From: Perkinsus olseni
Lineage: Eukaryota
Direction of reading: 5' to 3'
Assembly: GCA_013115125.1 (NCBI GenBank)
Contig: JABANN010000075.1
Coordinates: forward strand, 1 to 64,000
DNA: 64,000 nucleotides
The translations under genes were made by a program, and so were the position numbers. Under the pieces are notes generated by a model that was given only the letters and a program-made list of their open reading frames with translations, was not told where the DNA came from and did not search any database. Positions 28,349 through 36,810 of the stretch are shown here, in pieces. Positions within the stretch are counted from its first letter, which is position 1, and each line of letters starts with the position of its first letter.

Positions 28349-31300
28349 ATGTTGCGGGTATTGCTACTGATATCGTGTATGTTGGGCTCTACTCTAGCCC
28401 AAGTCTCAATATCAGCTATCACACCAAGTGGGTGCCGCAACGGCATTGTCGTTGTCATTGTGTTATGCGGGGGTGATAGCCATTCTGCAGGTCCTGGGAG
28501 TACTCTCAGGAGCGAACCTATTCAAGTAGTCTTCTCTGAGTCTATCATCAAGTTCGGTACAGATCTGAGCGTATCTGCCTTGCCCAATGGATCACCCATC
28601 ATACTGGAAGTGAGCTCCTCGTTATCTTCTTACAATCTCCACTATGCATCATCTCAGTCTTCCGGCGAGACCTCCCCTACTGAGTTTGGCCGGTGGAGAT
28701 GGGTAACAACATCAATACTCAGGTTTGATGTTGAGGATGAGGTATCGTCCACTAACCATCGTTAGAAATACAGTGCTACTTTGTCGTAGCTCTGGCCAGG
28801 CGACCTACGCATATCTTTCAAGTTGAATGAGACTTTCACCTCTTACAGAGGGAGAACAATTGTATCGGAGGAGTGATGAGAAGACTAATAACGGCTCCTG
28901 ACCTCTCATTGGATTTCAGAGAAGTACCCTCATGGATGACGCAATCACTCGGTCTCCGTGCTATTGAAATGAACAGTGAGCTTGCCTATAACGCCACCGA
29001 CGGAGCATGGCGAAGCAGCGTAATGATTGTCGCTACCGCTGCTGTCCATTATCATTTATGCGTCTTGCTTTTCAGCTCGGATACATTGGAAGTGACCATT
29101 CGAATAAGTACGAGACACCTCCTGATTCTATCATAACCATATGGACGGATAGGCCTGTAGACAGTACCCTGGTCTCGGTTCCGGGGCTTCTCACCTGCGA
29201 TGATATCACCGTGCTCTACTCGGATCCCCCCACTCCACATCCCTGTCGTGTCCCTGGCTCGAAGGAGAACTTGGTTACATGCTTCAACATCACATTGTCA
29301 AAGGCATTAGCTCCAGGAGAGGAGTGTGGCTTGGCCCTCTCCCGAGCGATGCCCTATACCCAACATTCGGGTGCATGGCGTGGTGAGATATCCACCATCC
29401 TCACCGGGTATATCCCCTTCCAGTTCCTATTCCATGACCGTGAATACTATCATGAGATGTCATCCAGCCGTCTATCCTTAGCTATCCAACATGGTCTCCC
29501 CTCGGGCACCGACCTCACCTCAGTCATTGCACTAACGCCGCCGGTAGCAGAGTATAAGGCAGTGGTCAGGAACAAGTCTAGGGTGGTGTTGAGCGGTAAG
29601 TTCGAGCCTGGTGTTCAGTACACAGCAGAAGTCACTCCTCCTACCTCGCCTCTTACGGACAATGTCGGCATGGTGTTGACGGGATCAACAGGTAGCTTCA
29701 TTATGGCGGAAGAGAATCCTGGCCTGGTCCATAAAGTTGACGGCTATGATGTTACCCAATTCCCTCTACACGACAGATCCCGAGGCTTCCCAATGCTGAC
29801 TAGAGTCTCCGAGCGATGGGGCGTCACTACGTGCCCGGTCACTTTCGATAACCTACCCCAAGCCTTGCAAGTCGTCTTCAGCCATGGGAGGGATACCAGT
29901 AGGTACAACCCCTGCCGGAGTGTCGACACGATGACCAGCATGCTACAACTATCCCCTGGCATCACACAGCTCCTCAATCATACCACAGCTTATCCGTCTA
30001 ACGTCAGTATCATCATGGTTACTGACAATAGCCGACCTCAATGGTATCATACCACTCGTTTAATCACGGCATCAACTTTGCAGGCCCTCCTATCACCAGT
30101 AGCGATCAGTGGTAGCGCATTGAGCTGTAAGAGAGGGCATGCCTCGCTGCAGAACGTATCAGGACTGCATGTGCAGCTAACACATCCCTTAGTGGCCGAT
30201 GTGCAGCTTTGGGGTAGCAACACTGATGAGGCCGTGTACGCCGCTACCACGGACCCACTCGGGTATGTCTTCGTACCGTCCTGTCCGAAGTGTCTACAAC
30301 AGTCCCTCTCGGTCGTAGTCTCAATCGATGGCCAAGTGGTGTACATACACCCTGCACGAATCTACCTCGACAGTGGTACTACCTTCGACGACCACCAGGA
30401 GAGCCGCTCTGTCGCGCTACATGCTACTCTCATCCCCGACCGGGCACTCTATGCTCCTGGTGGGGTATTGGCAATGGCAGGATGGGTAGTCTCCTCGACT
30501 CTTACGTGTCTAGCATGTCAACCAGTAGATCTCACAAACTATGAGTTCAATCTCACGGTCACCTGGTCCCAGACCCTACCCCAGTCAGTTATCCCTTTAT
30601 CTGTTAACGACGAGGGCAACGTGGATCCAGTCAATATTCCAATACCGAGATCTGTCCCTCTAGGATCTCAGCCAGCGTTCGATATGAGCTGCAGCATCAG
30701 ACCATCTTCGATGGACGATTCACCGGGGGTCGCACCTCGCCACGGCTGTGAGATATTCAGAGTAGATGTTCCTGAGCTGCTCATAGCTGAGCCGAGAGTG
30801 CCCATTGCTGTGATGGACCTCACTCTACCCACATCCATCACAGTCAGCGATGCGCTTTCCTCCAACGATACTTACGTGACTATCGCCACCTACAGCGGTA
30901 CACCTCTGCCTGGCACTACAGTAGATGTGACTCTAACGCTTCGAGACTCTATCGATGGTGCACCGCACTGTGGTCATTCACCTGAGAGCTATACCACTTA
31001 TGCTGCTACATATGAGACTGACAAAGACGGTGTTGCTCAAATCGCCCTGTTCGATAGTGGAAGCGATCTAGGACGGCCTTGGAGCGAGGGACAGACTATC
31101 GAGGTAAGGAAATCTAGCCTTCATTAACTGCGCCAGAAGTACGCCTCTCCAGATTAAAGCGTTCGCTCGAGATCCTCTTGGCGCCGTACTGAGTGCAACC
31201 GCGAGCATAACGATTGATCACCCGTTGCTGCGGCTGAACCCATTACAACTATCGGTCACCGACCCCCTCCCTGGTATCAAGTTTGATGCCTTAACTGGAA

Positions 31301-34300: not shown

Positions 34301-36810
34301 AGCGGAGGATGTCTCCTTGGGTGGTGAGCATGATTCGGCGACTCTGAGGAACGAACTCCTCCATCAACTCATACACATCCATACTGTGGGTGGTGTACTC
34401 AAATGGAGTAGAAGTATGTCCACTGCTATACGCTCTGTTATAGCCTCTCCTCTACTACCCTCAGATTCCCCCTATCCATCTTACGTCAGCATCTGGCTCC
34501 ATTCCCTCGCCATCATCGCCTTGAGAGGCCATACCCAGTCACAATACAGTGTCGCTCGTACCACTTGGCTCAAGGCTGCCATCGACTCTATAAAGGACAC
34601 TCTGGACCGATTCCCTGATGCCCGCCCTTACAACGATGTTGCTCGGCTATACCATGCTACTGGTCAGATAGCCCCACTTGAAGTCCTACACGTTCTGGTT
34701 CAGGTAGCAGTCACTTCGATGGCTTACCACTCCCCTACTCCAAGATCGACTCTTTTAAGGAGGTATTGACCCCTTTAGACAGTATGACTGCATGGCTCTT
34801 GATGAGAGTAACCGTTGGGGAGCTCTCAAGTGAGGATGCCCAGGCAGTTATATGGAACAATATACGTGTCAGCAGCAGCGAGACTGCGTACGTACGGGGC
34901 TGCCTTACCCGGCTGAACTCTCATGATCGTAGATACATAGCTCGTCCAGGGCAACCATCACCACTACCGGACCATCTGCAGGCCTTAGCCTTGCATCTGG
35001 CTACCGTCAATAACGAACAACAACAAGAGGAGAGTATAGACATGCTGCAGCAGCAGCACCACCGGGCTTCTCACTGATCATTCAGGACGGGAACTCCTAT
35101 GGAGAGTTGGAGTATGGCTGGGGCAGGGTGGTGTGGAGGCCAAGTGGGGTGGTATATACAGTCAAGGGTAACAACAGCGGGGTGTTGACGGCATGCACGC
35201 TTGTATTAGCTTCTCTACTGAGACTTTACTCTTCGCAATAGAGGCCTTCACAGTACTGGATGAATCCATGGCTAATGACACCCCGCAGATAGAGGTGGGG
35301 GTGCTACTGGCGTAGTGAAGCAACTAAGCTCGAGCTGCTTAGATGACTGTATCCGATGGAGATGGTGATACTATATGGGAGACTTCTCTCACCGAGGAGA
35401 ACCCCGTCTCGGGCAGTCTATGGTTGCCAACAGTCAATTCGACTAGCACTGCTGTACAGCCCGACAGCAGTGGCTATGAAGGGCCCCTGATGTGAGCGTG
35501 GGATGGCTACGGTGAGGCCTGGAATAGCAGACCAACCTCAGATGGAACATCACTGGTACTGGAACGGCCTTCACCTTCCTTACCGCCAACATACTCCCGA
35601 AGCACCCATTCGCGTGGCCAATTGACAGGGGCTTCACCGTCCGCAAGTTCATCCAAGTGAAGCCAGGATCATCACCCGATACCTCACTCCAGACGTCTCC
35701 TCTCTCCCGCTTCAGCTATTTGATGTCTCTACGGGGCAGTGTACAGGGGGCATGCTAACCTCGGCTGTGACGGGGCAGCTAGTCTGCATTACCATCAACA
35801 TCGAATCAGACGATGATGTCCGCTCGCTCATAGTGGAGGTAACGGTATTCGCACGCGATGCTCACAAGCTCTAGGCTTTAGGATCTGTCCCCCAGTGGCC
35901 TCGAGCCTCTGGATGAGAACATCGACTCTCTCGACATTAAGACAGCAGGCTCATCCTCATCAGGAGCACCTGACTACTACCATTGTATTCCCAGAAATAG
36001 TGCAGTATCAGTCCACACCCTCAATATGATCAGATGAGGGTCAGCACAGTGCATACAGCGTTAACTCAAGAACGCCTCTGATATGTGCTAACTCACGTTG
36101 GTGGCTGCCTTGCAGGAGGATCACTAAACGGACGGGCAAGGATACTGTGTTATGGGAAATAGATGGAATATCGTCACGAGAAGGTCTAACATTGAGGTCA
36201 TGGCCTCGAATAATAACTACAGGATTTACTCGATCATGTCCAGTACTCAGTTACTTGGCTACTGCCAATGTGCCTGGAGATTATGGATTACCTCAGACTA
36301 GGTGTTATGATACATCCAATCCAACCTATATGGGTATGTCAGGATACTCGAGGTAGAGTATGCAATACTACGCCCCTCCCCACTATCGTAGTCTCACGAC
36401 TAAGCGGCAGATTCGCTGTTACGGTACCCGGCGGCACGCTCTCGGTTATACCCACCGGTACACCAGAGATAGCCCGTCGAGCACTCCTAGGAGAGGGTGG
36501 GACGGATTGTGTCGGGAGGAGGCCATTAGATTCCAGCTGGTGAGGAGGGTCCGCGCGGGTAACATGAGGCTTCGAGTGGGAAGGCGGCTTTTCTAGGTGT
36601 GACTTATCAAGCGGAGATTGGATGTGCGGGACAGCTCGGTGCACGGATGAGGCCACCAATCTGCAAGGCTGCTCTGGTGGATCCGATGGACAAGTGGCCT
36701 GCACTGGTTCCTTACGGAATTTAACATCTGCCACTACTCGGACCCCATTCAGCTCACATTGGATAGATTGCCTCACACTGGTCACATTAGTATGGGTTAT
36801 TGAAGTGTAG
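28349..36810 (+). CDS. Bacterial-type alpha-2-macroglobulin family protein, signal peptide plus hydrophobic C-terminus, multi-exon
   Basis: Signal peptide MLRVLLLISCMLGSTLA; Ig-like start PIQVVFSESI...GRWRWVTTSILRF; MG2-like LIPDRALYAPGG; VIIAVVDQGILDF; low-complexity bait-like stretch; C-terminal YLATANVPGDYGLPQTRCYD..NP..MGMS. Confidence 0.75.

Follow-up and report, generated by a model that had tools for sequence, protein, structure and literature searches.

Most descriptions treat alpha-2-macroglobulins (A2Ms) as immune proteins of animals, with periplasmic look-alikes in bacteria. Among the bacterial proteins, Type I A2M genes adjoin pbpC, and Type II includes MagD of Pseudomonas aeruginosa, a protein of YfaS type that is without the CXEQ thioester motif and has kept its bait region (both from PMC5764988). 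That source also describes how proteases cut the MagD bait and how an engineered TEV site led to stable, non-covalent capture of the protease; MagD is there a periplasmic protein, encoded in the six-gene mag operon and found in complex with MagA, MagB and MagF (PMC5764988).

We analysed a 64,000-nucleotide stretch of the mollusc parasite Perkinsus olseni (the window; contig JABANN010000075.1, positions 1 to 64,000, assembly GCA_013115125.1), in which 28310-36810 on the plus strand is one gene with 37 exons, 36 GT..AG introns and 2,237 codons, according to a homology-guided dynamic-programming model. Membership of its product in the A2M superfamily, with the bacterial-type layout, is established, and the thioester motif is gone. 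Taken as a whole, and leaning partly on analogy, the explanation that we favour with moderate confidence is a member of a thioester-less eukaryotic clade that came to Perkinsus by vertical descent and would act as a surface-tethered, non-covalent, bait-triggered protease trap.

Macroglobulin architecture and the thioester site

A first-pass annotation, made from the letters of this stretch, had described a multi-exon gene with a signal peptide, an Ig-like module, a set of short motifs, a Cys-rich stretch and a hydrophobic tail, and every one of these elements is present on the plus strand. Its locus of about 8.5 kb also stands; the coding sequence, however, starts at 28310 and not at 28349, and the N-terminal reading had crossed the intron at 28428-28490. 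In the following list domain positions on the window were transferred by alignment to relatives with Pfam matches, and motifs are placed on the spliced model.

28310-28399, plus strand: predicted signal peptide, about amino acids 1-30, ending in ...GSTLA, with a hydrophobic core
28517-28941, plus strand: Big_5-like Ig module, amino acids 49-142, interrupted by introns and holding IQVVFSESI and GRWRWVTTSILRF
28688-28726, plus strand: motif GRWRWVTTSILRF, Big_5-like region
29076-31103, plus strand: large exon 6, N-terminal MG array, 676 amino acids, with a bMG3-like domain at 30069-30371 and MG2 at 30423-30695
30435-30461, plus strand: motif PDRALYAPG, MG2 region
31662-32477, plus strand: A2M_BRD bait-region domain, amino acids 984-1174, ending in AVVDQGIL
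32448-32471, plus strand: motif AVVDQGIL, end of A2M_BRD
32680-33202, plus strand: bait-like disordered insert, amino acids ~1224-1345, Pro/Ala-rich, predicted local distance difference test (pLDDT) <50
33215-33675, plus strand: A2M domain (PF00207-like), amino acids 1350-1456, with weak Pfam A2M matches in orthologues (E 0.086-0.17)
34129-35267, plus strand: degenerate TED-like helical domain, amino acids ~1577-1863, a helical bundle in AlphaFold
34147-34221, plus strand: motif HCHRTAFTPYNMYDEDKGDIRTDLL, TED-like region
34168-34200, plus strand: thioester-equivalent site TPYNMYDEDKG, from local alignment with 15 bacterial and 14 other eukaryotic members
35630-36326, plus strand: bMG10 domain, amino acids 1952-2115, with DLSPSGLEP and ANVPGDYGLPQTRCYD
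36264-36311, plus strand: motif ANVPGDYGLPQTRCYD, bMG10 region
36327-36711, plus strand: Cys-rich tail with 7 Cys, aligning with the EGF_Teneurin stretch of the green-algal protein P0036
36763-36807, plus strand: tail motif IDCLTLVTLVWVIEV
36763-36810, plus strand: C-terminal hydrophobic tail IDCLTLVTLVWVIEV with the stop, a candidate attachment signal for a glycosylphosphatidylinositol (GPI) anchor, the same tail being found in P. olseni P0002

From end to end the order is a predicted signal peptide, the Big_5-like module, an MG0/NIE/MG1-like array, bMG3, MG2, further MG domains, the BRD with its disordered insert of ~100 amino acids, A2M, the TED-like domain, bMG10, a Cys-rich EGF-like tail and the hydrophobic end. 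The Big_5-like module aligns to the Pfam Big_5 stretch of the bacterial relative P0166; its RWVTTxIARFD belongs to the family consensus, as does the pattern PxxCxxxCxxxxxCxxxxG of the Cys-rich tail.

Ten single open reading frames (ORFs) of the window were compared with Pfam and gave no family other than one chance-level match. Because the exons are too short and too diverged, the Pfam scans were run instead on two Perkinsus orthologues, P0002 of P. olseni and P0001 of P. chesapeaki. The former exceeded the bMG10 cut-off of 26.2 with 34.1 bits, reached 20.7 bits for A2M_BRD (below the cut-off of 22.7) and matched A2M at E = 0.086, while the latter exceeded the A2M_BRD cut-off with 23.9 bits and scored 21.5 bits for bMG10. 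A search of a language-model atlas returned A2M-family clusters alone. Among 21 long relatives, Pfam found bMG10 in all 21, A2M_BRD in 19, A2M in 18, MG2 in 16 and Big_5 in 6, together with bMG3 and EGF modules, and the order of domains is colinear with that of bacterial relatives. There was no Pfam match to A2M_recep (PF07677) in P0001, P0002 or these 21 relatives.

A phmmer search with P0002 against the sequences of the PDB yielded 0 matches, and a family profile was used in its place. This 32-row profile, three rows of which are bacterial and may favour bacterial matches, found Salmonella A2M at 1.3e-54 and E. coli ECAM at 1.2e-53, in three stretches spanning the proteins, versus 2.6e-19 for human A2M, 1.6e-18 for TEP1 and 7e-17 for C5. 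Structure prediction agrees with the family assignment. The AlphaFold model of the C-terminal half, made from a piece of an orthologue (pLDDT 68.7, pTM 0.65), consists of beta-sandwiches, a disordered insert of ~100 amino acids (residues 115-217, pLDDT <50), a helical domain, further beta-sandwiches and a terminal helix, and the helical bundle at residues 449-734 of the piece has pLDDT mostly >80. Foldseek alignments of this model exceeded 1,000 columns with ECAM (3.5e-32), frog A2M, Salmonella A2M, A2ML1, CD109, C5 and TEP1; the helical domain of thioester type, a hallmark of the superfamily, aligns within full-length A2M structures. The N-terminal exon (29076-31103) was modelled as all-beta with pLDDT 75.3; its best Foldseek matches were ECAM (5a42, 4.5e-16), Salmonella A2M (1.4e-14) and the MG0-NIE-MG1 head of ECAM (4zjg, TMt 0.63), versus 2.6e-9 or weaker for animal A2Ms. 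The first-pass reading of a bacterial-type A2M, rather than a metazoan TEP or C3 protein, is thus upheld by bMG10 in the place of A2M_recep, by the Big_5-like N-terminus, by profile matches of 1e-54 versus 1e-19 and by the N-terminal fold.

We also concur with the earlier statement that the CxEQ thioester motif is missing, since it occurs neither in any plus-strand frame of the thioester region nor in the spliced model. A broad thioester-like pattern applied to the three plus-strand frames of 28300-36900 matched two strings only, at 36271 (CLEI, not CxEQ) and 32586 (CIEQ), neither of them in the coding frame or within the thioester region. The bacterial block YPYxCxEQxxS aligns to TPYNMYDEDKG, followed by DIRTDLL, in the window protein, and other eukaryotic relatives carry short degenerate strings at the aligned position. 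Any C.EQ was found in 1 of the 47 rows of the eukaryotic clade described below, at an unrelated position, versus 58 of the 77 other rows, on the bacterial side; a thioester motif at the aligned position was found in 0 of the 47. With the motif gone across the rows of the clade, its loss is a trait of the whole eukaryotic clade and is not specific to Perkinsus.

As a separate observation, CxEQ is also missing from 19 of the 77 bacterial-side rows (including P0171, P0174, P0180, P0184, P0187, P0217, P0218, P0221, P0223, P0227, P0228, P0233 and P0236), and the spread of these rows over several separate clades means that bacteria too have lost the thioester more than once.

Splicing, gene models and protein ends

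Splicing was assessed with contigs from one public run, X1, which carries 73% of the stretch's sampled words and which we presume, as a guess, to be RNA. Among the joints listed, at least 13 of the 36 introns are spliced out as GT..AG joints in these contigs, with lengths of 43-64 nt, and the other 23 were placed by homology to P. olseni and P. chesapeaki proteins. One contig bridges 33614-34464, the expected thioester region, using 605 bases of its own for 851 genomic bases, and the five modelled introns there sum to 246 nt, an exact match. The large exon 6 is contiguous in RNA contig 1, and an X1 contig runs unspliced across 36596-36923, covering the last exon and the stop. Over residues 45-1893 (P0254) and 947-2237 (P0002), the exon structure is matched by independent P. 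olseni models. With X1 presumed to be RNA, this nuclear gene is both expressed and spliced.

The model drew on the listed RNA joints, codon statistics from exons confirmed by RNA and similarity, codon by codon, to P0001 and P0002, and its parts are as follows.

28310 (ATG) to 36808-36810 (stop), plus strand: coding sequence, beginning at the first in-frame ATG downstream of an upstream stop
28310-28427, 28491-28609, 28658-28741, 28790-28872, 28920-29019, 29076-31103, 31153-31355, 31405-31573, 31617-31740, 31792-31873, 31926-32023, 32064-32181, plus strand: exons 1-12
32230-32347, 32400-32517, 32573-32694, 32745-32839, 32904-33010, 33054-33294, 33340-33492, 33533-33614, 33670-33834, 33883-34008, 34054-34243, 34291-34413, plus strand: exons 13-24
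34465-34662, 34704-34887, 34933-35033, 35086-35167, 35210-35294, 35343-35491, 35542-35656, 35716-35838, 35882-35984, 36034-36196, 36251-36352, 36411-36539, 36597-36810, plus strand: exons 25-37

The modelled introns measure 40-64 nt (median 49, n = 36). A bounded enumeration of intron combinations gave more than 5,000 solutions, so the intron set is not fixed by length alone. Inside the bait region, the in-frame GT..AG stretch of 54 nt at 33144-33197 is retained here and spliced out in both P. olseni models; it may be a 37th intron (38 exons), which would give a protein of 2,219 instead of 2,237 amino acids. Two other gene models were discarded, an ab initio Viterbi model built without homology, in which introns were over-called, and a high-penalty model that retained in-frame introns. 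The window has a G+C content of ~50%, with many short open frames on the plus strand at 28.3-36.8 kb.

The longest ORF (28992-31127) had a single relative in a word-based search, the P. chesapeaki hypothetical protein P0001 of 2,014 amino acids, at 49% identity, and tblastn with this protein placed colinear pieces over 28505-36699 of the window. A second search brought in P0002 of P. olseni (1,271 amino acids), whose pieces cover 31508-36807 with ~93% identity over amino acids 947-2237 of the model, and the partial P. olseni protein P0254 has 89% identity to residues 38-1893. Identities of 89-93% point to P. olseni, or a close relative of it, as the source of the window. The identity of the P. 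chesapeaki protein to the spliced model is ~47-50%; by region it is highest in the Big_5-like module (65%), lowest internally in the bait-like insert (35%) and 45-65% elsewhere. Because the tblastn matches of P0001 and P0002 are colinear from one end of the locus to the other, at E-values as low as 0.0, chance likeness is excluded. Orthologues are present in two other Perkinsus assemblies.

These data also bear on the idea that the locus is an artefact, either bacterial contamination or a dead pseudogene, to which we give practically no weight. The empty single-ORF Pfam scans and the introns left unspliced in some RNA contigs could be cited for it, and they are set against 36 short GT..AG introns, at least 13 of them seen spliced, a frame open over 2,237 codons, the orthologues in the other two assemblies and eukaryotic flanks. 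The flanking window ORFs with Pfam matches encode a DHHC palmitoyltransferase (51847-52893, plus strand, 2e-34), a ricin-B lectin (48581-49387, plus strand, 4.5e-7) and leucine-rich repeats (16693-18699, minus strand, 2.2e-10), and the neighbourhood is that of an ordinary eukaryotic gene.

Comparison with the public models allows P0001 and P0254 to be corrected. P0254 is without 29 residues of window 30486-30572, which are exonic in an RNA contig and kept in P. chesapeaki, and P0001 omits the first part of the TED-like domain (~33858-34452) as well as the MG10 exon at 35716-35838. The C-terminus of P0001 matches the plus strand of 37145-37207 at 86%, a stretch that, read on the minus strand, is the last exon of a convergent gene. 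This neighbour (37120-37455, minus strand) has introns at ~37228-37272 and ~37363-37408, with CT..AC joints in RNA contigs, and a basic tail. The P0001 C-terminus is probably a fused mis-annotation, reading the neighbour's exon on the opposite strand.

At the N-terminus the protein is hydrophobic, with a mean Kyte-Doolittle value of 2.4 over 15 amino acids, and a leader is also present in the P. chesapeaki orthologue and many members; a signal peptide is a plausible prediction. Three types of C-terminus occur in the family: a hydrophobic helix followed by a charged tail (dinoflagellates, Arcella, Pyxidicula and Clydonella), a hydrophobic stretch at the extreme end (the window protein and five unlabelled members) and an EGF-like end (green algae). 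The window tail comprises 15 amino acids after a Ser/Thr-rich spacer and the 7-Cys region, and AlphaFold puts the terminal helix there. Being too short for a normal transmembrane helix, it is better guessed to be a GPI signal, and the protein is probably secreted and held at the surface by a putative GPI anchor. The surface anchoring proposed in the first-pass annotation keeps its plausibility, as a prediction from the hydrophobic N-terminus and tail.

A eukaryotic clade and its origin

Word-based searches returned Perkinsus proteins only. An exhaustive HMMER search with P0002 residues 164-1271 found 177 proteins at E <=0.001, and the best organism-labelled matches outside Perkinsus are eukaryotic and mostly 2,000-3,000 amino acids long. 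They include alveolates (Polarella glacialis, Symbiodinium natans, Durusdinium trenchii, Gymnodinium smaydae, Digyalum oweni and Neospora caninum), green algae (Chlamydomonas sp. UWO241 and Volvox reticuliferus), Amoebozoa (Arcella, Pyxidicula and Clydonella) and, from CRuMs, Rigifila ramosa. Identity outside Perkinsus is ~19-21%. A profile search added bacterial proteins of ~1,900-2,100 amino acids with Big_5, bMG3, MG2, BRD, A2M and bMG10, many of them labelled as YfaS family. Databases name the clade members automatically only, for example 'Bacterial alpha-2-macroglobulin MG10 domain-containing protein', and at the level of listings and abstract starts we found no description in the literature of a protist-encoded family of this kind.

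In a FastTree analysis of 124 rows, all 15 labelled eukaryotes fell with 32 unlabelled rows in a 47-row clade with support 100 and 0 labelled bacteria. IQ-TREE (LG+G4, quick search) on 49 rows gave a 29-row clade with SH-aLRT 100. One candidate row for the bacterial sister of the clade has a support of just 82. In the best tree nine alveolate rows (two Perkinsus, four dinoflagellate, Digyalum, one eukprot transcript and Neospora) lie on one side of a branch with a weak support of 65. The window protein belongs to the clade by its placement inside it, by the RWVTT..RFD motif, by its lack of a thioester and by its Cys-rich, EGF-like tail. Its position beside other alveolates is consistent with vertical descent, and we infer that a gene of an alveolate ancestor probably passed vertically to Perkinsus. 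As a side observation, the dinoflagellates fall in two distant subclades, Gymnodinium smaydae (P0027) in one and Polarella, Symbiodinium and Durusdinium (P0007, P0016 and P0165) in the other, a split that points to old duplication, or to transfer between eukaryotes.

The first-pass annotation had proposed an old transfer from bacteria to a protist. Part of this is kept, in that a bacterial origin is plausible and would be very old if real; the recipient would not have been Perkinsus or any one protist, since the family is spread through a eukaryotic clade. The narrower version, in which the lineage of Perkinsus, or perkinsids only, received the gene from a bacterium, with introns gained later and a role against host proteases, strikes us as very unlikely. 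It draws on the bacterial-type domain order, on the best structure and profile matches being bacterial, on the long Perkinsus branch (1.35) and on the purely Perkinsus results of the word-based searches, but exhaustive search replaced those results with 177 relatives, the best labelled of which outside Perkinsus are eukaryotic. The Perkinsus proteins moreover lie inside a clade with 100% support and no labelled bacteria, group with other alveolates and have N-terminal motifs, a Cys-rich tail and the lack of a thioester in common with the whole clade. Because Perkinsus sits within so wide a eukaryotic clade, any bacterial origin must be ancient.

For the clade itself, midpoint rooting places the eukaryotes nested among bacterial groups, and we infer from these otherwise unrooted trees that a single ancient exchange with bacteria is a plausible source. 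The opposite possibility, which we rate as rather unlikely, is that the clade does not derive from bacteria; the architecture would then go back to the last eukaryotic common ancestor or have spread from eukaryote to eukaryote, with bacteria as sisters or recipients. At least four lineages at the supergroup level (Alveolata, Chloroplastida, Amoebozoa and CRuMs) carry the family, the trees are unrooted, and the two dinoflagellate subclades hint at an old duplication or transfer. Apart from the nesting under midpoint rooting, this scenario is opposed by a bacterial diversity that is far larger and that keeps the ancestral thioester. It touches the origin only and leaves the identity of the gene unchanged.

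Proposed role and comparison with known systems

We propose that the protein would be secreted and tethered to the cell surface, most probably through a GPI anchor, and that a protease could there cleave the exposed bait; the MG cage would then close, and the enzyme would be held sterically and non-covalently, as in MagD. In a parasite of molluscs such a trap would weaken the action of proteases at the surface, whether those of the host or the parasite's own. A non-covalent trap is proposed because of the analogy with MagD and because the full MG cage, BRD, A2M, TED-like domain and MG10 have been retained. The bait position holds the disordered insert of ~100 amino acids (pLDDT <50), which is the least conserved internal region, at 35% identity with P. 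chesapeaki.

A serious rival is that the same family does not inhibit proteases and serves instead as a scaffold for surface recognition, adhesion or organisation of a matrix, a role that we consider possible rather than probable. Among thioester-less animal relatives, Drosophila Mcr has junctional and phagocytic roles and C5 is a scaffold. Throughout the clade the thioester domain has degenerated strongly; proteins end in EGF-like modules or in transmembrane helices with cytoplasmic tails, as in receptors or adhesion proteins; the family is found in free-living algae and amoebae; and the Big_5-like N-terminus is the most conserved part, at 65%. What argues instead for inhibition is that a disordered and fast-evolving insert lies exactly at the bait position and that the array of MG cage, BRD, A2M and MG10 is complete. 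A thioester is also not needed for trapping by MagD (PMC5764988).

A number of points weigh against the explanation favoured here, that of a vertically inherited, surface-tethered trap. For the gene model, 23 of the 36 introns are placed by homology only, and X1 is only guessed to be RNA. Four modelled introns (28742-28789, 28873-28919, 33493-33532 and 34663-34703) are retained in X1 contigs from which neighbouring introns have been removed; retaining them brings the frame to stops, and homology and the open frame require their removal. Because these four are left in the contigs the assembled RNA is partly unprocessed, and they could reflect either pre-mRNA carried into the library or intron retention. 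The C-terminal tail is short and only moderately hydrophobic (mean 1.5 over a 17-amino-acid window), and the P. chesapeaki model has a different end, which is probably due to mis-annotation. As to the family, besides the bacterial rows in the profile, Foldseek on the C-terminal half fails to separate bacterial from animal A2Ms (3.5e-32 versus 5.4e-32), and Pfam TED_complement is unmatched in the Perkinsus proteins, their thioester-domain region being highly diverged, so the mechanics of the cage may be altered. The trees are unrooted and quick-search, made with LG+G4 only and with animal TEPs and MagD left out; composition heterogeneity and long branches were flagged, the Perkinsus stem measuring 1.35, and 32 of the 47 clade rows are without an organism label. 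The literature searched yielded no functional study of any member.

Defence against host proteases had been suggested by the first-pass annotation, and as the ancestral role we do not accept it, because free-living algae and amoebae carry the family too. Our most tentative extension is that the Perkinsus gene may belong to an ancient, eukaryote-wide and undescribed class of thioester-less proteins, anchored by a membrane segment or by GPI and spread over apicomplexans (Neospora), dinoflagellates, green algae, amoebozoans and CRuMs. In this class a non-covalent, protease-trapping surface shield would be a third kind of A2M system, next to the humoral TEPs of animals and the periplasmic A2Ms of bacteria, and would have been co-opted in parasites such as Perkinsus against the proteases of host haemolymph.

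The bacterial-type, thioester-less form is in any case a conserved family across many unicellular eukaryotes, among them a commercially important parasite of molluscs and, by homology, coccidians, with a predicted surface location. If protease trapping is true, the protein would be a candidate means by which the parasite withstands proteases of the host haemolymph, or else regulates those that it secretes itself, and would offer a tractable eukaryotic model for trapping that is independent of a thioester.

Among described proteins, animal A2M, A2ML1, CD109, TEP1 and C3/C4/C5 have the same superfamily fold (Foldseek 5e-32 to 1e-25), with profile E-values ~35 orders of magnitude weaker than those of the bacterial proteins. 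A GPI anchor is found in CD109 too, and the thioester is likewise missing from C5 and from some insect TEPs. The animal proteins, however, have an A2M_recep C-terminus and a TED that Pfam detects. The Perkinsus protein has bMG10 in place of A2M_recep and is not a metazoan TEP.

The best matches among solved structures, for both halves and including the bacterial-specific MG0-NIE-MG1 head, are Type I bacterial A2Ms, namely ECAM/YfhM (5a42, 4ziq and 4zjg) and Salmonella A2M (4u48). These are lipoproteins of ~1,650 amino acids with an active CLEQ thioester, whereas the Perkinsus protein is eukaryotic and ~600 amino acids longer. With no thioester, no lipoprotein character and an intron-bearing gene for 2,237 amino acids, it is not a Type I A2M. 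MagD resembles it in the missing CXEQ, and the MagD bait has a putative counterpart in the bait-like insert of the Perkinsus protein; this is a likeness by analogy only, as MagD is absent from the trees, and gives no ground for calling the protein Type II by descent; unlike MagD, a eukaryotic protein is not expected to have the mag operon partners.

Closer in layout are the bacterial Big_5-bMG3-MG2-BRD-A2M-bMG10 proteins (Caldilineaceae P0166, Gemmatimonadaceae, Longimicrobiaceae and Spirochaetaceae), which are of the same length class and have the same domain order. The family profile finds bacterial Big_5-A2M proteins at E down to 1.4e-192, a value reached with a profile that held unlabelled, possibly bacterial, rows. 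Unlike the Perkinsus gene they are intronless and lie outside the eukaryotic clade, 58 of the 77 rows keep YPYxCxEQ, and there is no EGF-like or Cys-rich anchored tail.

The closest relatives of the Perkinsus protein are the uncharacterised eukaryotic bMG10 proteins with which it shares the clade of support 100 (Neospora caninum P0115 of 2,981 amino acids, Polarella P0007, Durusdinium P0165, Digyalum P0008, UWO241 P0036, Volvox P0055, Arcella, Pyxidicula, Clydonella and Rigifila). They are colinear with it from RWVTT..RFD to the Cys-rich tail and are also thioester-less, with signal peptides and anchors. Perkinsus differs from them in its very long branch and in a GPI-like hydrophobic end, where the others have a transmembrane helix with a cytoplasmic tail or a plain EGF end.

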